The notes below the pieces were generated by a model that did not search any database, had not been told where the DNA came from, and saw only the letters and a list, made by a program, of their open reading frames with translations. From an uncultured virus (IMG/VR IMGVR_UViG_3300006358_000001) (taxonomy: Duplodnaviria > Heunggongvirae > Uroviricota > Caudoviricetes), in IMG/VR virus record IMGVR_UViG_3300006358_000001: a stretch of DNA of 20,720 bases; one strand, written 5' to 3'. The position numbers were made by a program, and so were the translations under genes. Below, piece after piece: positions 1 through 12,164 of this stretch; position 1 is the first letter of the stretch, and each line of letters starts with the position of its first letter.

Positions 1-345
1 GGTCGATGGCGTGATCGATATCATGACTGAGACGTCAGCCGCCTGATCGGTTGCGTTGGCCTTCGATCCCGCTCTCACCTTGAGCCAGCCCAGCGCCTGC
101 GTCCACACCTGCGCTACGTGGATCGATGTGCCGCGCCTCGCCGTGATCGTGATCTGCTGACCTTCGTCATTGACCAGATCGAAGTAGTTCACACCATCGA
201 CCGAAGTTTGAAACGTCATCACTGGCGTTGCGTGTTCGGTGTAGTCGTCGGGAATGGTGATGCGCACGACGCGACCGCCGGAGCAATCGACGCCTTCGGA
301 CAAGCTCTCACCGGCTGCGATGTTGGCTGAAAGGTTGGCGAGCAT
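1..345 (-). CDS. Probable virion-associated beta-rich protein, runs off the window (MLANLSANIAAGESLSEGVDCSGGRVVRITIP...TFQTSVDGVNYFDL...)
   Basis: Translated by hand: ATG at 345-343 overlaps the TGA of the upstream ORF; frame open to base 1; lies downstream of the portal. Function inferred from position only. Confidence 0.7.
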   Translation of the reverse strand, partial: MLANLSANIAAGESLSEGVDCSGGRVVRITIPDDYTEHATPVMTFQTSVDGVNYFDLVNDEGQQITITARRGTSIHVAQVWTQALGWLKVRAGSKANATDQAADVSVMISITPST

Positions 346-557
346 CACTTGTTCTCCCACTTGCTTTCGACGGAGTCATAGACCCACTCACCCGTGCGAT
401 AGATGCCGTCCTTCTCATCCTGATACTTCTGGATGCGAAGCTGCATGTCCTTGTAGTCCTCGAACTCCCAGTAGCCGGGACCGAACTGGCTGTAGTCCGG
501 CGGATCAGGATCGTCGATCCACGGCGCGAAGTTCGGCTCGCTGCGAATGCGGCTCAT
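345..557 (-). CDS. Small acidic/aromatic hypothetical protein (70 aa)
   Basis: ORF track; start overlaps the portal stop (ATGA) and stop overlaps the next start (TGATG). Confidence 0.75.
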   Translation of the reverse strand: MSRIRSEPNFAPWIDDPDPPDYSQFGPGYWEFEDYKDMQLRIQKYQDEKDGIYRTGEWVYDSVESKWENK

Positions 558-3500
558 AGCTTGATGCCCTTCTTCTTCGCGAGATTGATCAGGCTCTTCT
601 CGTAATCGGAGTCACGCTCCTTCGGCATCACGCCCATTTGCTCCCACAAATCTTTCTCAGGCCACCACCATGTCGCCTGCGCACCTGCGGGTGTGAGCCG
701 ATAGCCGTCTTCCTTGTTCAGCTTGTCGATTGCGCCGTGCATGATCTCGGTGATCCACTTGCGCTGAGCACCCGATGCAGGTTGCTCGTTGAGCTTGCCC
801 TTGTCGTACAGCACGAGCCGCTCAGCAGCGCCGACCAGTTCGCTCTTCTTGTACTTCTCGCCGGGCTTCTTCGTCTCCTGCCACTTCTTGTACGCCTTCT
901 CGTGACGCGCCTCGACTTCGTATGCACGCGCGATCAATTCCTTCTTCGATAGTTCGCCATCACCACCGTGAGCGAGCACGCGCTGCATGCGCTCAAGCTG
1001 TCCGCTCATGTCATCGTTGACGCCTGTGCCAGTGAGACGTCCCCACGAGCGCATCAGCCACAAGTCCATCGTGATCGGATTAAAGTTGCCGTTGAGGTTC
1101 TGATAGAAGCCGTTGCCGATCTTCGGTCCGAGATACGCGGAGCCGAGCACCATGTCGTCCTTGTTGGTCGCGCCGGGCTCGACGCCCTTCTTCGTGCCAA
1201 GGATCACGCCAGTGCGCTTCTCCAGATCACGCGCCGTCATCTCCTCGTTGAAGAACTCGATGGTCTTATCGATCCCGATCTGATCGATCATCTTGTTGAC
1301 CTTGATCAGGTTGTTCGAGATGTTCGGATCAGCAGCGCTGATGTCGAGCGGGAAGCGACCGTTGCCCGGCGACTTCTCTTCCTGTTCGAGATAGCTGGTG
1401 TAAGCCTGATCGGCGAGATCGGCAGAACGGGAAACGATCTCACCCTGCGATGTGATCGCGAGCGCCACCGTGTACATGAACTTCTGACGCGGATCGTCGG
1501 CCATGCCGGGATATATCTTCTCGGCAACGCTCATCGCCCGCTTCATCGTGTCGTCGTACCAATACTCGCCACCCTTGCCGTTGATCAGCGCATCGCGCAT
1601 TTCAAGCGCAACGAGATCGGTCAGGAATTTGTCGCTCTCCGGCGTGCGGTTCTCGACGGTCAATTCCTTGACGCCGAACTTCTCTTCGATGATCCCCTGC
1701 GCACGCTTCATGATCATCTTCGCGGCGTCGCCGACGTTGACCTCGCCACGCTTGATGTTCGGATGCTCCGACGTCAGCGACATCGATGTCAGTCGGTATC
1801 CCGGCGTGTCGGTTCGCTGGCTCCAATGATCGCTGACACCCTTCCAGATGTCTTTTGCTCCCGGTACTTGGGATTCTGCAATGACGCTTTCGTATACTTC
1901 TCGGCTGCGGTCTCTTTGCTGTCGCTCCGTGCCGTCTTCTGGGAGTGTTTCTGGTGGGACGAATTCTCCGTGTCCCTTCTCGTAGTCGATGGGGTTGTCA
2001 TTGCCGTACCTCTCTGCAGCCTTGTTGATCGCATCGAAGCTCTCGCCGTCGAGATCAGCGACGTAGACTGTAGCGCCGCCACCTTCCTTCGGCACGATGG
2101 TATGGAATGCGAGTCCGTCCTTCAGCAGGTTGCGATGGATCGCAGCGAGTTCACCCTCCGCCTCGAAGTGTGCGAGCACCGACTTGCCGCCGTCCTCCTG
2201 CTTGAACACCAGCACCTGCTTCTGATCGAAGATGTGGCCCTTCATCACAGCAGCGAGCTTGATCTCTTCGTATGATCCCTGCGCCGTGGTCATCAGCGAA
2301 TTCTCTGCACCGTCTGCCCACGCGCCGAGAATGTTGACGTCCTTCGCGCTCTTCAGCCCGACCTTCTCGTTGATGTCGTCGGACACGACGCGCATCTTCT
2401 TCTGCTGTGCGGAGCCCAACTCGCGCACGGCTTCCTTGAAGTCGAGGTTGGTCTTCACGCTGGGCGATACGAACTCCGTGCTCCTGCCACCCTTGCTCGC
2501 GTTCTGCAGCTTGCTGTGGATGACGGTCTCGCCCTTCTCGTTCTTGCTGGTGAACGTCGCGCCTTCCTTCGTCGCGGTGTACTGCGCACGCGCGTGCTGC
2601 AGATATCCCTCACGCGCAGCCTTCTGCGCTTTCCTCACAGCGGGATGAACCTTCTCGCCCTTCTTGTGCGGCGCTGGCTTGCCTTGCTTGCCGCCGCTGT
2701 ATCCACCGGGACCGAACTGGCCAGCGTTCTCAGGTTGACCGCGCGGGTGATCCTCTTCACGCCAGATCGCATCGAAGATGCGCTTCACCAGCCAGCCCTT
2801 GAAGCCTGCGTCCTCGCTGTCCTCCGCGAATTCCTCTTCCTCGATGCGCTCGCCGTTCTCATCGAAGCCCGGTGCTGGCAGCAACTTCTGTTCGTGCTGA
2901 TGCAGCGCGTGTTCTGCGATCATGTCTTCATCGATAGCGGACTCTTCCAGCGCAGCTTCGAGACCGGGATACGTTCCGTCCTCGATCAACTGGTTCTGCC
3001 GACCCTTCGCCAATGCATCAGGCGGAATCAATCCGGCGTTGACGTCGATCATGTTCGCCTGCGCCTTCTGCAAAGCAATCGACGCTTTCTCTGCATCGCT
3101 CTGCTGCCAGAGCGAAGTCCATTCGTAATAGATGTTCTTGTCGGTCTTCCCCAGTGCCGATTGCTGGATCACCCTGTCGAGCTTCTCCAGCGCTGGCGTC
3201 AGCCGCAATATCTGATCGGAGTGAATGCGGTCGTAGTAATTCTGCAGATCACTATCGCCAGTCGCATTCAATCCTGCAGGCGACATGCCAAGGAAGCGCG
3301 TCACCGGAATATCGGCAGCACCTGCCGCGATCTGCAGATACATCTGCAGTATCTCCGGCATGCCACGGAATTGCACTTGGATGCGCTGCCAGTCCTCTTC
3401 AGCGTCGATCAGGATGGAATTGACAATCGACTTCGCGACGTTCGCTTCCGTCATGCGCTTGACCATGCGCTGCGTGCCGTCGGTGGTCGAGAAGATTTCA

Positions 3501-4198
3501 GTGAGACCGGGAATCTTGATGACGTCGATCTTCGCTTCAGCGATCAACGTGGCCAAGCTGCCCATCACCGATCCCGCCGACGACACCGCGTCGTGGATCA
3601 CTTGCAACATCGGATCGCCCCAACCGAAGTTCGCCATCGGGTCAGGCGGATCGAGACCGATCAGGCGCACCATGCGCGATGGATGGATCATCACATCGCC
3701 GAACGTGCCGTTGGTGTCGTTGATCTTGTAGTGCTCCGGCATGCCGTAGTACGGCGACGAGATGTCCTTGATGATTTCCTGCGGCGCGAGTTGATGCGGT
3801 GCGAACACGTGCACGAACTTCAGCCCGTCTTTCTTCACCGTCTTCGGATCAAGCTCGCTCGCCATGTCACCATCAACGCCGATCAGCATGCACGAGCCGC
3901 CATAGAGCCGCGACTTGACCAGCGCATCCTGCAGCTTCTGCTGTATCAGCAGCCGCTTCTCCGTCTCTTCGAGTAGCTCGATCTGATTCTGTTCGGCCTG
4001 CCACGCACGCCATTCGCGCACGCTGTCCATTGCAGGGATCGCGATTGCCTTGCGTGCGATCCAGTCGGATTGATACGACGCTTCGAGTTGCTCGCGCGTC
4101 CACAGTTGCTTGACGTACCTGAACCCAGTCGACTTATCCCGGCCAGCGATGCCGAGCCCGGACAGGAAGTTCGTGAACGTGTCGAACATGTAAGCCAT
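554..4198 (-). CDS. Phage portal protein (DUF1073/HI1409-like) with long C-terminal extension
   Basis: N-terminal ~420 aa carry DUF1073-type motifs (YQSDWIARKAIAIPA, SRLYGGS, IHPSRMVR, AGAADIPVTRFLGMSPAGLNATGDSDLQNYYD); downstream of TerL; then an acidic linker and ~750 extra aa. Confidence 0.88.
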   Translation of the reverse strand: MAYMFDTFTNFLSGLGIAGRDKSTGFRYVKQLWTREQLEASYQSDWIARKAIAIPAMDSVREWRAWQAEQNQIELLEETEKRLLIQQKLQDALVKSRLYGGSCMLIGVDGDMASELDPKTVKKDGLKFVHVFAPHQLAPQEIIKDISSPYYGMPEHYKINDTNGTFGDVMIHPSRMVRLIGLDPPDPMANFGWGDPMLQVIHDAVSSAGSVMGSLATLIAEAKIDVIKIPGLTEIFSTTDGTQRMVKRMTEANVAKSIVNSILIDAEEDWQRIQVQFRGMPEILQMYLQIAAGAADIPVTRFLGMSPAGLNATGDSDLQNYYDRIHSDQILRLTPALEKLDRVIQQSALGKTDKNIYYEWTSLWQQSDAEKASIALQKAQANMIDVNAGLIPPDALAKGRQNQLIEDGTYPGLEAALEESAIDEDMIAEHALHQHEQKLLPAPGFDENGERIEEEEFAEDSEDAGFKGWLVKRIFDAIWREEDHPRGQPENAGQFGPGGYSGGKQGKPAPHKKGEKVHPAVRKAQKAAREGYLQHARAQYTATKEGATFTSKNEKGETVIHSKLQNASKGGRSTEFVSPSVKTNLDFKEAVRELGSAQQKKMRVVSDDINEKVGLKSAKDVNILGAWADGAENSLMTTAQGSYEEIKLAAVMKGHIFDQKQVLVFKQEDGGKSVLAHFEAEGELAAIHRNLLKDGLAFHTIVPKEGGGATVYVADLDGESFDAINKAAERYGNDNPIDYEKGHGEFVPPETLPEDGTERQQRDRSREVYESVIAESQVPGAKDIWKGVSDHWSQRTDTPGYRLTSMSLTSEHPNIKRGEVNVGDAAKMIMKRAQGIIEEKFGVKELTVENRTPESDKFLTDLVALEMRDALINGKGGEYWYDDTMKRAMSVAEKIYPGMADDPRQKFMYTVALAITSQGEIVSRSADLADQAYTSYLEQEEKSPGNGRFPLDISAADPNISNNLIKVNKMIDQIGIDKTIEFFNEEMTARDLEKRTGVILGTKKGVEPGATNKDDMVLGSAYLGPKIGNGFYQNLNGNFNPITMDLWLMRSWGRLTGTGVNDDMSGQLERMQRVLAHGGDGELSKKELIARAYEVEARHEKAYKKWQETKKPGEKYKKSELVGAAERLVLYDKGKLNEQPASGAQRKWITEIMHGAIDKLNKEDGYRLTPAGAQATWWWPEKDLWEQMGVMPKERDSDYEKSLINLAKKKGIKL

Positions 4199-4201
4199 CG
4201 A

Positions 4202-4399
4202 TCAGACCTTCAACTCACGTTCGATTTCCGAAACGATCTCTTCCCGTGAGCGACCGTTCTTGTTGATCAAATACAATTCGATGTCGTACAGCAGCGAGTT
4301 CAGCAGCGCCTTGCGCTCTTCCGTCGCCCCCAGCATTCCCTTGCCCGTCGCACGCTGGCTGATGATCTTCGCAGCGTCGCGTATCTCATCATCGGTCAC
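4202..4399 (-). CDS. Hypothetical protein (65 aa)
   Basis: ORF track; GTGA overlap with the upstream ORF; ends 3 nt before the portal start. Confidence 0.65.
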   Translation of the reverse strand: MTDDEIRDAAKIISQRATGKGMLGATEERKALLNSLLYDIELYLINKNGRSREEIVSEIERELKV

Positions 4400-4695
4400 A
4401 TGTCACCGCCGTTGCCAGAGCGACCAGTGCCGCTCCAGTGCGATGGCTTAACAACGCGCGGCCCATCGTCATCGATGCCCTGCGCAACCTTCATCGCGTT
4501 GGACATGTCGCCCATCGTGCGTGCGCACAGTCCATGCGGATCGAGCGACTGCTCCAGCATGATCCACGGCACCAGTCCGGCGATGGTGTGCCTGCCTCTT
4601 GCCAGAGTGAACAGCAGACCTTCGATCTCCAGCGCCACCGTGATGTCCATTGCCCATCCGGTCTTCGCTATGCCTGCGAGCGTTTCAACTTTCAT
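4396..4695 (-). CDS. Hypothetical protein (99 aa)
   Basis: ORF track; 4-nt overlaps at both ends. Confidence 0.65.
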   Translation of the reverse strand: MKVETLAGIAKTGWAMDITVALEIEGLLFTLARGRHTIAGLVPWIMLEQSLDPHGLCARTMGDMSNAMKVAQGIDDDGPRVVKPSHWSGTGRSGNGGDM

Positions 4696-4880
4696 TTGTC
4701 ATCCCACCTCTTGATCGCATCCATCATCAGCAGCGCAGGCACTTCCTGATTGCTGTACTCGCCTTGCGTAGCATGCGCACCGACGCGGATCGCGCACCAG
4801 TAGACCAGACGACGCGGCAGCTTCCACGCGATAGCAGCCAGTATCTTGTCGCGGTCAAACCATTTGTCGGCGTGGTTCAT
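4692..4880 (-). CDS. Hypothetical Trp-rich phage protein (62 aa)
   Basis: ORF track; ATGA overlaps at both ends. Confidence 0.7.
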   Translation of the reverse strand: MNHADKWFDRDKILAAIAWKLPRRLVYWCAIRVGAHATQGEYSNQEVPALLMMDAIKRWDDK

Positions 4881-5104
4881 CCGCGAAACCTTATCTTCTC
4901 AACATCGACGACAACGCCCGGATTGGTGAGCACGAAGCTCTCCTTCATCCGCTCCCACTTCGTGTGCCGCACGTACATGCGCAGCGAGTCGTTGCTCATC
5001 AGGATGTTCTCTTGCGTGAGCATCGCGAGGATGCCCGGCGGAATCTCCACAGCGAGCGCGTCGTCGTCTGGCACGATGATCACGTGGGTGCCCTTCGGCA
5101 GCAT
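4877..5104 (-). CDS. Hypothetical protein (75 aa)
   Basis: ORF track; GAGGA RBS upstream; coupled to the next ORF. Confidence 0.7.
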   Translation of the reverse strand: MLPKGTHVIIVPDDDALAVEIPPGILAMLTQENILMSNDSLRMYVRHTKWERMKESFVLTNPGVVVDVEKIRFRG

Positions 5105-5114
5105 CAGTCGATCC

Positions 5115-5279
5115 TCATAGGCTAAGCCCTATCGCTGCAAGAACGCTCACGGTGAGCACGATGCTGATCACTGCCCAGTCAGCGCGACCGCTCCAGTCCT
5201 TGACGTCGTCGATCCAGTCGCGCCGTCGCCCACGCAGAGCGTCCTGCTTGTCGGTGATCAGCTTCTCCAGATCGCACAT
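5115..5279 (-). CDS. Small membrane protein with C-terminal TM helix (~54 aa)
   Basis: 3' part of ORF 5115..5387; GGAG 6 nt before ATG 5279; ends WAVISIVLTVSVLAAIGLSL. Confidence 0.6.
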   Translation of the reverse strand: MCDLEKLITDKQDALRGRRRDWIDDVKDWSGRADWAVISIVLTVSVLAAIGLSL

Positions 5280-5295
5280 CACCATCTCCGCTCGC

Positions 5296-5490
5296 TCAGT
5301 GCACGCTCTGCATCTCACGCTCAACAGCGGCCACAATTTCGTGGCGCTGCAGAATTGTCTCTCTGCCTTCAAGCATGGCTTCAGCATCGAAGATCAAATC
5401 CCACCATGCGTGCTGCGGTCCGACACGTGCAGCAATCCCTCGCATGATCTCCACCGCTCGAACGAATTGCCGATGATCCATCATGCTCAC
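5296..5490 (-). CDS. Hypothetical protein (~62-64 aa)
   Basis: ORF track 5296..5496; GTG at 5490 overlaps the TerL stop; alternative ATG at 5484. Confidence 0.6.
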   Translation of the reverse strand: MSMMDHRQFVRAVEIMRGIAARVGPQHAWWDLIFDAEAMLEGRETILQRHEIVAAVEREMQSVH

Positions 5491-6953
5491 ACCCACGACA
5501 GCGAGCGATCATATGTGCCGACGGATGCGGCGAGCTTGTTGAACGCGCCCGCTGTTGCATCGACCTGATCGTCGTTCCTGCCATTCGGGAATTCTTCGTG
5601 CTCCTGCAGGAATTCCCTATTCCATCCTGCGGCCTTGATCGAGACCTGTCCAGCCTGAACCTGCGCTGCATAGGGTTCGGCGCGAACTTCTTTCGACCCG
5701 GTCACCTTGTCGAGCTTCACCGTGAAGCCCTTGAACTTGCGTGCCGACGCTTCGGCTGACTCCTTGCCGCCCGATCCCGGCTCTTGCTCGAACCAGATTT
5801 CATATCGAGGGCACATCGCCTTGTCTGCGATGGCTGCTTGCATGATGCGGTCGTCGCGTTCGAGCGATCCCCACTGGCCACGGATCACATCCTCGACGAC
5901 GGTCGTGCCGTTCTTCATCTCGTGCACCAGCGATGCGCAAGTGTAGTCGCCGTCGCCTTGCGATGATGCCTTGTCCACGTAGCGCACGCTGCGCTTGATC
6001 TCTCGTCGATCCACGGAAGCGATGACGTTGAAGCGCTCCGTCGGAAACATGTCGCCGCCTGCAGCGATGGGCGACTGCTGATAGATCGATTGCCAGCCCG
6101 ACAGCGTGAGCACCTTCTTGCGCTCCATCAGGAATTCGACTGGCTTCAATCTGGGGAAGAGCGCCTGACCTTTCTTGCGATACTCCTCATCGACCTCAGC
6201 GATGGCGGGATAGCGCAGCACCTTCGTCTTCGGAAACATCTCGATCCATCTGCCGAGCGGATCGTCGAGGTGCCAGCGTGTCATGATCATCAGGATGCCA
6301 GCCTTGTCGCTGAACCTGCCGAAGAAGTCGTCGGTCATCCACGCCCATGTCTTATCGCGGATTGTCTTCGACATCGCTTCGGCGCGACCCTTCATCGGAT
6401 CGTCGATGATGCCGAGATCGAGACCGAGCCCGTTGATCTGGCCCATCACCGTGGTGTTTCGGAAGCTGCCGTTCTTGCCGACGTATTCAAGCAGCGAGCT
6501 ATTGCGTATCCATCGAGCGCTATCGGTCGAGGTGTTCGAGGTGTTCAGCCGCGTCTCAGGGAATGCGACCCGGTACGCGTAGCTGTCGAACAGGCGCTGC
6601 AGCGAGAGGTTCACGCGCACGCCGAGATCGTCAGAGTAGCTGCCGAAGATCGTCTTGAGATTTGGATTCTTGCCAGCGCACCACGCGGTGAAGTCGGTCA
6701 CGGTCTCTGTCTTGCCGTGCTGCGGCGGTGCCATCATCACGAGCGCAGGACGTTTGCCTGCGACCATGTCCTCGTAGAATTGCTGGAGATGTCGAGCGGC
6801 ATCGCGTTGCCACCAGCCCTTGATCATCGTCGGATGCATCAGCTTGCGGAATTCCCAGAAGTTATTCTGTGCACCGAGAGCCGCAGCACCCTCAAACACT
6901 TTCACATCTGGAGCAAAGAATTCCTCCGTCCTCTCCGGAGCGAATTGAACCAC
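5487..6953 (-). CDS. terL: Terminase large subunit
   Basis: Walker A MAPPQHGKT, Walker B LGIIDDP, motif III IMTRWH, YQQSP linker, nuclease motifs YVDKA, EQEPGSGG and DDQVDA. Confidence 0.95.
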   Translation of the reverse strand: MVQFAPERTEEFFAPDVKVFEGAAALGAQNNFWEFRKLMHPTMIKGWWQRDAARHLQQFYEDMVAGKRPALVMMAPPQHGKTETVTDFTAWCAGKNPNLKTIFGSYSDDLGVRVNLSLQRLFDSYAYRVAFPETRLNTSNTSTDSARWIRNSSLLEYVGKNGSFRNTTVMGQINGLGLDLGIIDDPMKGRAEAMSKTIRDKTWAWMTDDFFGRFSDKAGILMIMTRWHLDDPLGRWIEMFPKTKVLRYPAIAEVDEEYRKKGQALFPRLKPVEFLMERKKVLTLSGWQSIYQQSPIAAGGDMFPTERFNVIASVDRREIKRSVRYVDKASSQGDGDYTCASLVHEMKNGTTVVEDVIRGQWGSLERDDRIMQAAIADKAMCPRYEIWFEQEPGSGGKESAEASARKFKGFTVKLDKVTGSKEVRAEPYAAQVQAGQVSIKAAGWNREFLQEHEEFPNGRNDDQVDATAGAFNKLAASVGTYDRSLSWV

Positions 6954-7797: not shown

Positions 7798-8274
7798 CTA
7801 TGCGGTTTGCAGGAGACCCGGTGCCAGTTCGACGCGTCCCAACGCATCTAGCAGAACAATCTCACGCTGGCGAGATGTCTGCCCTTGGTAGATGCCGCGC
7901 TGTCCGTCGAGTAGTCCGCCGACGACCTGCACACCCTGTCCCTGTTTGAAGCGTGACTTCTTCAGGTGGATGAGCCCGTCGGAATGTTCTTGTTGTTTCA
8001 TTCGATCAACCCAGCCCTTCGGAAGATAGGCCGGGCGTTCTCCGTTCATGATCAGGTTCGAGACGCCGAACGTCGAGAGGATGGCGTGCCACTGGTGCTC
8101 GATCCAGACGAACACGTAGCGAGGAAACAGCCAGCGTGCTTCGTGGACTTTGCGACCGCGCACGACGCGCACGATCTTCTCTCGCGGCGCGTAGCAGGAG
8201 AAGCCTTGTCGCTCAAGGTGCCGGATCGCGCGGTGTTCGCTGGATGGCTGAGCTTGCACGACGGACCAGAACAA
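7798..8274 (-). CDS. NusG/RfaH-family transcription antitermination factor
   Basis: NGN domain (WSVVQAQPSSE, LFPRYVFV, STFGVSNLI) plus KOW motif (FKQGQGVQVVGGLLDG); likely TTG start at 8274 with GGAGG 6 nt upstream (ORF track extends to 8307). Confidence 0.9.
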   Translation of the reverse strand: MFWSVVQAQPSSEHRAIRHLERQGFSCYAPREKIVRVVRGRKVHEARWLFPRYVFVWIEHQWHAILSTFGVSNLIMNGERPAYLPKGWVDRMKQQEHSDGLIHLKKSRFKQGQGVQVVGGLLDGQRGIYQGQTSRQREIVLLDALGRVELAPGLLQTA

Positions 8275-8305
8275 CGGCGACCTCCCTGATTCGCAGTTGC
8301 CGCGC

Positions 8306-8336
8306 ATTCTGCGGAGCGCTCTGCCGCAGCGTCAAG
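8306..8336 (-). promoter_or_regulatory. Candidate leftward promoter cTTGACG-N18-CAGAAT for the NusG-like gene
   Basis: -35 at 8335-8330, -10 at 8311-8306; same -35 hexamer and spacing as the candidate at 7764. Confidence 0.45.
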
Positions 8337-10499: not shown

Positions 10500-10565
10500 G
10501 CGACTTCTTCGACACTGCGCATCTCGGTGCGCAGCACGAAGCATTCCGCTTCAGGAGCAACCACC

Positions 10566-12164
10566 ATGACTGAACTTCCCATCTCTGAACTGAAGACGCG
10601 TGGCCAGATCGTTGCCGACGATGTGTCGGCTCTTCTCCGCGCTCGAAACCCGCTGATCTGGATCGTCTCTCGCGAAGAAGCTCGCGTCGAGGCGCTCTTG
10701 ATCGAAGCCGCTGCCGCCGCTGCCTACGTGCCTCGCATGTGGGACGCTGCGCAGGGCATCACCGACATCTCCGGCAAGCAGATCGCGGAGATGCGCGACC
10801 AAGTGGACGTCGCTGCAGCGCTCACCATGATCGGTGCTCGTGCGCAGGGTCGCGAACGCGGCGCGTGGATCATGCGCGATCTGCCGGTGTGGCTCGATGG
10901 TGCCATCGGCATCGTCACGCTGCGCCAACTGCGCAACCTCGCTCGCTCGCTTCCGGGCGCTCCACGTGAGAGTGCGCAGGCGATCATCGTGATCTCTCCG
11001 AAGGCTGAGGTGCCGCCGGAGCTTGCCGGTCATGCCACGGTCATCGATTGGCCGATGCCTGATCGTGCGGAGATCGCGGCGATCCTCGACGCTGCCATCG
11101 AAGGCCTGCCCGACGACCTGCGCGACAGCGCAGCGCCGAACGGCCAGCGAGAGGCGGCGATTGATGCCGCTGTCGGTCTCTCCGGTGAAGAGGCGCAGGC
11201 TTGCTACGCTCGCTCGCTGGTGCAGCTTCGCAAGATCGACCCGGTGCTGGTCGCATCGGAGAAGAAGCGCGTCGTGTCTCGCGAGCGCGTCGTCGAATGG
11301 ATCGAGCCGATGAAAGGCGGACTCGATGCGGTCGGCGGTCTTGAGAACCTGAAGGGCTGGCTGCAGGTGCGCAAGTCGGCCTACAGCCCGGCGGCGCGTG
11401 CATACGGTCTGCCCGCACCGAAGGGCATCTTGCTGGTCGGCATTCCCGGCACCGGCAAGTCGCTCACCGCGAAGGCGGTCTCCACGGCGTGGCAGTGCCC
11501 GCTGCTGAAGGTCGATCTCGGTGCACTGAAGTCGAAGTTCGTCGGCGACAGTGAAGCGAACCTGCGGCGGCTCTTCAAATTGATCGAGGCGATTGGACGA
11601 TGCGTCGTCTGGTTCGACGAGATCGAGAAGGCGCTGCAGGGCGCGACGTCAGGCTCTGCTGACGGCGGCGTCTCCAGCGATGCGCTGGGTGCGGTGCTGA
11701 ACTGGATGCAGGAGCGGCAGGGTGAAGCGTTCGTCATCGCGACGGCGAACGATGCATCTGCGCTGCCGCCTGAGTTGCTGCGCAAGGGCCGGTTCGACGA
11801 ACTGTGGTTCGTTGATCTGCCGACCAAGGCGGAGCGTGAGGCGGTGCTGTCCGCAGCGCTGCGCCAGTACAATCGCGGCGACGTTGCCGTGAACGCTGCC
11901 AAGGTGGCGAAGGCCACTGAAGGCTTCACTGGCTCCGAGATCGCGGCCCTCGTCCCTGATGCGCTGTTCACGGCGTTCAATGACGGTGCTCGCGAGATCG
12001 TCACCGAAGACCTCTGCGCTGCTGCCGGATCGGTGGTGCCGCTGAGCGTGACAGCGCCTGAGAAGATCAAGGCGCTGCGTGAATGGGGCGCTGGCCGGGC
12101 ACGTCCCGCGTCTGCACCCGAAGTCGCTGCGAAGGCTGGCAAGGTGCGAGCCCTCGATCTCTAA
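10566..12164 (+). CDS. AAA+ ATPase, Ycf46-like (degenerate N-terminal domain plus one intact AAA domain)
   Basis: Walker A GIPGTGKS, Walker B VVWFDEIEK, sensor ATAN, SRH LPPELLRKGRFDE; GGAGCAACC before ATG 10566. Confidence 0.9.
   Translation: MTELPISELKTRGQIVADDVSALLRARNPLIWIVSREEARVEALLIEAAAAAAYVPRMWDAAQGITDISGKQIAEMRDQVDVAAALTMIGARAQGRERGAWIMRDLPVWLDGAIGIVTLRQLRNLARSLPGAPRESAQAIIVISPKAEVPPELAGHATVIDWPMPDRAEIAAILDAAIEGLPDDLRDSAAPNGQREAAIDAAVGLSGEEAQACYARSLVQLRKIDPVLVASEKKRVVSRERVVEWIEPMKGGLDAVGGLENLKGWLQVRKSAYSPAARAYGLPAPKGILLVGIPGTGKSLTAKAVSTAWQCPLLKVDLGALKSKFVGDSEANLRRLFKLIEAIGRCVVWFDEIEKALQGATSGSADGGVSSDALGAVLNWMQERQGEAFVIATANDASALPPELLRKGRFDELWFVDLPTKAEREAVLSAALRQYNRGDVAVNAAKVAKATEGFTGSEIAALVPDALFTAFNDGAREIVTEDLCAAAGSVVPLSVTAPEKIKALREWGAGRARPASAPEVAAKAGKVRALDL

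Follow-up and report, generated by a model that had tools for sequence, protein, structure and literature searches.

A phage portal protein fused to a predicted two-domain cargo made of mobile polyvalent-protein modules

Introduction

Portals are 12-mers at the packaging vertex, and their C-terminal parts face the capsid interior. What is to be made of a portal subunit whose chain runs on, past the portal fold, into several hundred further residues? The question is raised by a stretch of 20,720 nucleotides from an uncultured virus (IMG/VR record IMGVR_UViG_3300006358_000001), referred to hereafter as the window. It derives from a tailed phage of soil or rhizosphere that has not been cultured and whose genome measures about 80-88 kb. 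One gene in the window, the portal-cargo gene, encodes a portal domain followed by an acidic linker, a short header peptide, a spacer and two domains that we call A and B (Table 1).

An initial annotation had proposed that the portal is used here as a loading handle for effector domains. Our comparison supports that interpretation through the portable nature of the modules, the header and the swapped ends behind it, and we consider it likely that the gene encodes a portal-anchored polyvalent cargo protein that delivers A and B. The idea itself is not new: two earlier papers (Iyer et al. 2017, PMC5512222; Iyer et al. 2022, PMC9503650) already present the portal as a loading handle, with different cargo. 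What is new are the cargo domains A and B, a fold-based lead for B and the family DUF7178, a series of swapped ends behind one header, and a possible frameshift variant.

Results

The fusion is genuine and conserved

The initial annotation had described an uninterrupted frame of 1214 amino acids (aa) with a portal domain of about 420 aa, an acidic linker, the motif FDAIWREEDHPRGQPENAGQFG, a spacer rich in Lys and Gly, and two globular-looking regions, and all of these were recovered (Table 1). The start codon is preceded by GAAGG about 9 nt upstream, and the stop codon TGA overlaps the ATG of the next gene (ATGA). GC content at third codon positions (GC3) is 0.61-0.84 over the entire length and is uniform across the junction, so there is no sign of two genes with different origin.

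A frame of this kind could arise by artefact, if mis-assembly or a sequencing error had joined a portal gene to a downstream cargo gene, and in one sister species portal and cargo are indeed read in different frames (see below). The public record speaks otherwise. The identical 1214-aa protein is present in 2 contigs from 4 sources, the longest contig being 82,720 nt, and an IMG/VR contig is 100% identical over aa 1-1137. When public contigs were compared over window positions 2300-3300, two possible source runs spanned the region without a difference. Contigs of two runs from other samples and studies, which cannot be the source, X5 (covering 2558-2708 and 2737-2962) and X6 (2590-2754 and 2809-3257), showed 0 differences and 0 gaps and jointly cover 2590-3257. 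The junction is identical, with no indels, in contigs from four runs, and these contigs show no stop or indel at 2700-2950.

The same arrangement is kept in relatives. PF06381, the portal family, is present in 26 of 45 cargo homologues; 21 of these 26 are 1127-1217 aa long, align with 85% or more of the cargo part used as query (aa 470-1214), share 46-100% identity with it and are encoded in a single frame. Several fused homologues lie in contigs of 80-88 kb, and the portal end and the cargo share one frame at 15 further loci, some of them near-duplicates. An assembly fusion, which the initial annotation had itself raised as a danger, is excluded by the independent contigs and the single-frame orthologues, whose identity is about 46-89%; we regard an artefactual origin as having a negligible chance. 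The fusion is genuine and conserved.

Table 1. Features of the portal-cargo gene and of its operon in the window
Feature	Position (nt)	Strand	Description
Portal-cargo gene	554..4198	minus	single intact open reading frame (ORF), 1214 aa, ATG start at 4198
Portal domain	2909..4198	minus	aa 1-430; PF06381, TIGR01555, PHROG 146
Acidic linker	2777..2908	minus	aa 431-474; 20% Glu
EEEEFAEDSED	2842-2810	minus	aa 453-463, inside acidic linker
Header peptide FDAIWREEDHPRGQPENAGQFG	2711..2776	minus	aa 475-496; fits family consensus
Lys/Gly/Ala-rich spacer	2495..2710	minus	aa 497-568; variable among orthologues
Domain A	1811..2494	minus	aa 569-796; predicted tandem ferredoxin-like, no named family
Domain B	557..1789	minus	aa 804-1214; predicted all-alpha
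70-aa ORF, FAPW.DDPDPPD motif at start	345..557	minus	translationally coupled to portal-cargo gene
Terminase large subunit (TerL)	5487..6953	minus	same operon, upstream of portal-cargo gene

The N-terminal part is a portal subunit

Four comparisons agree on the N-terminal part. PF06381 covers aa 37-381 (E 2.3e-96; score 323 bits, cut-off 33.8; profile positions 2-354 of 357), the PHROG 146 portal profile matches aa 3-428, and TIGR01555 (HI1409 family) matches aa 6-403 with 243 bits against a cut-off of 196. The closest solved relative is the Pam3 portal (PDB 8hds, 12 chains), which aligns over aa 6-420 (E 2.3e-94). The gene also has the position of a portal gene, in a packaging and head operon next to TerL, and in a 94%-identical relative a protease and the major head protein follow downstream. 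We therefore assign aa 1-430 with confidence to a portal subunit.

A search of a phage collection with the entire protein returned 1323 matching records. All of these align with the portal alone, which makes up the first ~35% of the query, and none of the 1323 covered 80% of the query. The portal was the sole family found in the ORF by a Pfam scan at E up to 1. No MuF domain was matched in the ORF by Pfam, PHROG or TIGR scans; MuF-like features reside on a separate gene downstream. The extension is neither a portal nor a MuF structural domain, the latter being a possibility that the initial annotation had raised, and consists of two portable modules.

The cargo domains are mobile modules

An exhaustive HMMER search with aa 470-1214 as query, at a threshold of E 0.001, found 2152 representative clusters. 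Their matches form two blocks that occur jointly or apart, A (query positions 100-327, aa 569-796) and B (query positions 335-745, aa 804-1214), in proteins of about 200 to 3452 aa. Purpose-built HMMs, applied to 192 collected proteins, found A in 115, B in 123 and both in 46.

The partners of these modules were scanned in a first set of 23 proteins and then in 47 of the 69 proteins that have A without B; of the remaining 22, 10 were already in the first set and 12 short ones were left out. Among the 47, DUF7178 was the partner in 10, a portal in 4, Zeta toxin in 4, DUF7689 in 3 and an ADP-ribosyltransferase in 2, with Acb1, NUDIX, MuF, DUF2213, a PI3/4-kinase-like domain and topoisomerase IB once each; Pfam found no partner family in 22. 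The 23-protein set added InPase, ART-PolyVal, LPD38 and a pyridine-nucleotide oxidoreductase, and co-occurring Pfam domains overall include ADPrib_exo_Tox, Topoisom_I, Phage_Mu_F and Zeta_toxin. ART-PolyVal and LPD38 occur in proteins of 3341-3452 aa that contain B. In two phage genomes of 39 kb, B lies inside proteins of 2792 and 3125 aa at the position of ejection proteins, and in one of these genomes the flanking genes are annotated as peptidase M23, 'stabilization protein' and tail fibre. Structural matches to B (TMq 0.76-0.79) were also found in BFVD proteins named for RelA/SpoT, ART-PolyVal and 'large polyvalent protein associated' domains.

The 3125-aa protein belongs to Limnohabitans phage DC33 (L001, PQ492659.1; 39 kb), whose record taxonomy is Inoviridae. 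Its gene order is like that of the tailed-phage record MW202640, so this classification looks wrong.

Within the PF06381 portals, the ends behind the header vary. The present phage and 20 orthologues have A-B; others have A followed by DUF7178 (P0037, P0066, P0128), A followed by Zeta toxin (P0187), other modules followed by A (P0040), or A with an end that gave no Pfam match (P0093, P0174). The C-termini are thus interchangeable after the header, which is the outcome of a comparison that the initial annotation had proposed. In one relative (L013 / L026, stop-to-stop frame 1-5238), the portal-cargo frame has at least 1745 aa, is open at the contig end and contains more cargo behind A than the window's gene.

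Several unrelated domains thus stand in one chain in a head-gene context, and the modules recur in other combinations with known polyvalent-protein domains. On these features the present gene qualifies, by comparison, as a phage-type polyvalent protein with a portal anchor, and A, B and the header are to be classed as mobile modules of phage polyvalent proteins. The pattern of module recombination makes the idea of the portal as a loading handle well supported by comparison.

These results bear on whether the cargo enters the virion at all. The fusion might be a device for co-expression, with A-B acting late in the producing cell, for example in counter-defence or in DNA processing while packaging proceeds, either within unassembled portal or after cleavage. 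Portals can have host-directed functions, as does T7 portal Gp8, which acts against RelA/SpoT (PMC13483052), and the case for virion content here rests on sequence comparison. A co-expression device would leave unexplained that the same modules sit on three different head-internal anchors (portal, MuF and DUF2213 protease), a distribution that is hard to explain except by capsid loading, and that they also occur at ejection-protein loci. We consider such a device improbable.

A header peptide precedes unrelated modules

The header has the consensus [WF]-[DN]-E-x-x-H-P-R-x(3-8)-G-x-[FW], followed by a Gly run, with a spacer of 3 or 6-8 residues between its two halves. The initial annotation had stated that motifs of the form HPR..G.F recur in head-associated cargo proteins, and such motifs do recur before cargo modules: the pattern HPR.{2,10}G.[FW] had 87 instances in 59 of the 192 related proteins, with up to 4 in one chain. 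The chance level, from 100 shuffles, was a mean of 0.44 and a maximum of 2. The flanking residues are also constrained: position -5 is W or F in 95% of the instances, and 94% have E at position -3.

Of 116 A domains, 60 have the header directly ahead of them, the median distance being 29.5 residues. The header was also found before ART, oxidoreductase and other modules, and near the start of genes that follow the portal gene in related phages. The segment between header and A in the window's protein is rich in Lys, Ala and Gly (aa 500-560: K 16%, A 15%, G 12%); among orthologues this spacer is variable and, for example in P0010, almost missing. Literature searches with spellings of the header motif returned solely unrelated papers, and the main texts of Iyer et al. 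2017 (PMC5512222) and Jamet et al. 2017 (PMC5576092) do not mention it.

Domain A is a predicted tandem ferredoxin-like fold

Both regions that had looked globular are folded domains in AlphaFold2 predictions. The model of aa 565-800 (mean pLDDT 92.2, pTM 0.89) consists of two ferredoxin-like beta-alpha-beta-beta-alpha-beta units and two C-terminal helices. Invariant residues of A include GAW.DGAENS (aa 625-634), Q659, F665, P703, R762 and R766. No relative of known structure was convincing: Foldseek against PDB gave at best weak tandem-ferredoxin matches with a TM of about 0.25, a profile search of PDB sequences gave 0 matches, and the best Atlas score, 0.79, was under the useful range. A SAM lyase (T3 gp0.3 / Svi3-3) was considered as a candidate for A; sequence-level support was lacking (hhalign E 0.27). 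Domain A often precedes variable enzyme modules, its commonest partners being B and DUF7178, and it may be a partner of B or a delivery adaptor.

Domain B has glycosylase-like structural matches and is probably related to DUF7178

The model of aa 801-1214 (mean pLDDT 93.5, pTM 0.88) is all-alpha. Its only consistent structural matches are DNA glycosylases of the HhH-GPD (helix-hairpin-helix) type; matches outside that group were the queuine-salvage enzyme DUF2419 and the 5-PmdU glycinyltransferase gp46 of phage PaMx11. Foldseek against PDB returned nothing for B with E below 0.2. A profile search of PDB sequences gave 3 matches at chance level, none of them a glycosylase, and PF00730 (HhH-GPD) matched 0 of the 26 members of the B alignment A2. 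The hhalign comparison of B with E. coli Nth and MutY was non-significant (E 0.38-0.66).

Conservation in B is concentrated at aa 1020-1054, where 26 sequences share the invariant pattern S...GPKIG.GF.QNL.GN..P.T.D.W..R...R, with G1024, K1026, G1028, G1030, P1041, T1043, D1045, W1047, R1050 and R1054 all invariant. This block resembles LPGVGRK...PTIAVDTHIFRVCNR of E. coli endonuclease III (Nth), that is, an HhH hairpin and an Asp-bearing helix, and in a greedy and non-significant hhalign run the Asp-containing segments of B and Nth came to lie opposite each other. Compared with the members of the HhH-GPD superfamily (endonuclease III, OGG, MutY, AlkA, MagIII and AGOG), B is about twice as large and has large insertions. 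A predicted base-flipping HhH-GPD-like fold together with an invariant Asp in a glycosylase-like motif suggests that B would act on bases or on a nucleotide.

At the family level the evidence points to DUF7178 (PF23802). The window's own domain B gives no Pfam match to this family, and the DUF7178 model matches 2 of 26 B relatives (best E 7.2e-5). When B was compared with 5 DUF7178 regions by hhalign, the E values were 0.0095 and 0.034. DUF7178 clusters made up 26 of the 30 Atlas feature matches of B (scores 0.95-0.96), and DUF7178 takes the place of B behind A in at least 14 proteins. Domain B is probably a divergent branch of DUF7178, a family for which our literature search found no paper.

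A sister phage splits the gene at a candidate slippery sequence

In a sister phage (L011:5953-5983; also L023, L024 and L025 at about 2465-2495), the portal ORF has 492 aa. Its stop lies 22 nt downstream of the sequence C CCT TTC, and it is in the -1 frame that the cargo goes on. The heptamer fits the X XXY YYZ rule for -1 slippage, and homology to the fused relatives moves from frame 0 to frame -1 exactly at its Pro-Phe codons. Three contigs, each from a different metagenome and 99.6-100% identical to one another, share exactly this junction, and split gene calls (portal ~492 aa and cargo ~717 aa) occur in several more assemblies. The gene call of a second cargo, 78% identical (P0012), begins at the same place. 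Before the in-frame TTG of the sister cargo ORF, inspection by eye revealed no Shine-Dalgarno-like AGGAGG. The junction may be a programmed -1 frameshift that sets the ratio of portal to portal-cargo; such a site may yield mostly plain portal together with a small number of fused chains. Alternatively, the gene may simply have become split for good. In the ORF of the window, no in-frame X XXY YYZ slippery heptamers were found that might produce a short portal.

Neighbouring genes

Downstream gene context was taken from a near-identical locus, L006, which shows no difference where it overlaps the window, and from contig G001, which is 94% identical. The order there is the 70-aa ORF, a 175-aa ORF, a 330-aa MuF-like gene and two collagen-like fibre genes, followed by a head maturation protease (phrog_530, DUF2213), the major head protein (phrog_264) and baseplate wedge genes. 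The protease was located only in the contig of the 94%-identical relative. With this gene set the phage would have a MuF of its own, apart from the portal, and a protease able to act on head proteins. The two collagen-repeat proteins of L006 (1932-8070) are large, 1255 and 793 aa, and the second has a Peptidase_S74 intramolecular chaperone domain; a site between the MuF-like gene and the head protease and capsid genes is unusual for fibre genes.

The 70-aa ORF begins with ..FAPWIDDPDPPDY... and stands alone, with no cargo, in the present phage. In relatives the FAPW.DDPDPPD motif opens the next gene about 50 aa before a header peptide and a further cargo module; downstream genes with the motif were seen in L005, L011, L012, L014, L015, L016, L019 and L020. 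In all 7 proteins that carry it, the motif lies directly C-terminal to domain B in one chain.

Upstream of the terminase and portal operon, window positions 7798-8307 (minus strand) encode a NusG-like protein, matched by PF02357 (E 2.9e-17) and by the PHROG 'transcription antiterminator'; the phage may thereby supply its own factor for late-gene read-through. A 545-aa ORF at 10527-12164 (plus strand) matches PF00004 (E 2.2e-27), an AAA ATPase domain, and has the lid as well. On the minus strand, several long ORFs for which no family was matched overlap it, which points to a genome strand switch nearby. The small ORFs between TerL and the portal, and most other ORFs of the window, had no family in the PHROG and Pfam scans.

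Discussion

Comparison with known systems

The nearest precedents are the phage polyvalent proteins, among which portal fusions to PBECR, 2H, NUDIX and ART are listed by Iyer and colleagues (2017, PMC5512222; 2022, PMC9503650). The present protein shares with these a head-assembly domain, here the portal, joined to modules that recombine with ART, NUDIX, InPase and other enzymes, and a gene that adjoins the terminase; for both, packaging in the head and delivery with the DNA are predicted. It differs in its cargo: A and the DUF7178-like B are not named in the main texts of those papers, which make no mention of glycosylase, SAM lyase or ferredoxin and mention HhH once, in another context. Our literature search on portal-fused effectors found nothing closer. 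Kronborg et al. 2026 describe portal moonlighting in the absence of a fusion.

The MuF polymorphic toxins (Jamet et al. 2017, PMC5576092) likewise combine a conserved N-terminal head protein with a variable C-terminal domain, in a gene next to the portal and terminase genes. Here, in contrast, the anchor is the portal, and the MuF-like gene is a separate one, located two genes downstream; the cargo does not correspond to any recognised toxin, nor is an immunity gene evident. The text of Jamet et al. does not mention a linker or cleavage.

The internal proteins of phage T4 offer a third comparison. IPI-III and Alt bear a capsid targeting sequence that is cut by the prohead protease and that acts via the scaffolding core, with no covalent link to the portal. 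What we propose has in common with T4 that unrelated proteins, carried in the head and co-ejected with the DNA, are each preceded by a short N-terminal address peptide. The header described here has another sequence, occurs up to 4 times in one chain and is fused to the portal.

A model for loading and release

The model that we favour, that of a portal-anchored polyvalent cargo protein, involves loading into the capsid, release by a protease and exit with the DNA. The C-terminus of the portal points into the capsid, and from there the chain would continue through the acidic linker, the header and the flexible Lys/Gly spacer to A and B. In phi24B, according to a preprint, portal barrel helices 'extend into the capsid interior'. 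Since the portal is a 12-mer in every procapsid, an in-frame fusion should load up to 12 A-B units, each of about 86 kDa (784 residues at 110 Da), or about 1 MDa in total, inside the head and beside the DNA end that leaves first. As the most likely sequel, the head maturation protease would cut in the region of the linker and header, and the freed A-B unit would leave the capsid as the DNA does. Early in infection, the targets of domain B would then be DNA bases or a nucleotide.

Several points weigh against this model. Packaging, copy number, cleavage and ejection are each deduced from the genes, and no site for a protease could be recognised around the header. Steric crowding may be a difficulty for twelve tethered units of 86 kDa, domain A has no convincing structural or sequence relative, and the split gene of one sister phage suggests that full occupancy may not be optimal.

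Some of these points would suit a permanent structure. On this main alternative reading, A-B would remain covalently attached to the portal and build an inner body or core, comparable to a T7-like core or to SPP1 gp7, that organises or holds the DNA end, with nothing injected and with the helix-hairpin-helix of B serving only to grip DNA. In-frame fusion is the rule, the missing cleavage site is as expected, an HhH-type fold is compatible with DNA binding alone, and the internal cores of podoviruses span a mass range that includes ~1 MDa. A structural role fits poorly, however, with the shuffling of A and B with host-directed enzymes (Acb1, ART, NUDIX and Zeta toxin) and with giant proteins at the ejection position. 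It also does not account for the invariant Asp/Lys/Arg block of B, which is typical of an active site, or for the long disordered linker and header, which look like an element for release or addressing, found again and again ahead of unrelated enzymes. We consider this outcome unlikely.

The portal-anchored cargo model can be carried one step further, at a much lower level of confidence. The header-tagged B, of a base-flipping glycosylase type, might be delivered together with A from the portal and act, within seconds of the start of infection, on DNA of the host or of the entering phage or on a nucleotide messenger, and its dose might have evolved: 12 copies by fusion here, a few by programmed -1 frameshifting at C CCU UUC in the sister phage, and free header-tagged proteins elsewhere. 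The header would then be a general and so far undescribed address or cut tag that is read by the head machinery of many phages. Taken together these proposals are speculative, and we hold them to be doubtful rather than likely.

Significance

Domain A, which belongs to no family, and B, which is DUF7178-like with a predicted DNA-glycosylase fold, are widespread modules that lack functional annotation, and their matches amount to the 2152 representative clusters found here. If B is an enzyme that acts on DNA bases or nucleotides, this would provide a first function for DUF7178 and for part of many giant phage 'ejection' proteins. Portal-anchored cargo would be a simple and genetically readable form of enzyme carriage, so that each new type of cargo found behind a portal becomes a candidate for an early counter-defence or take-over function.

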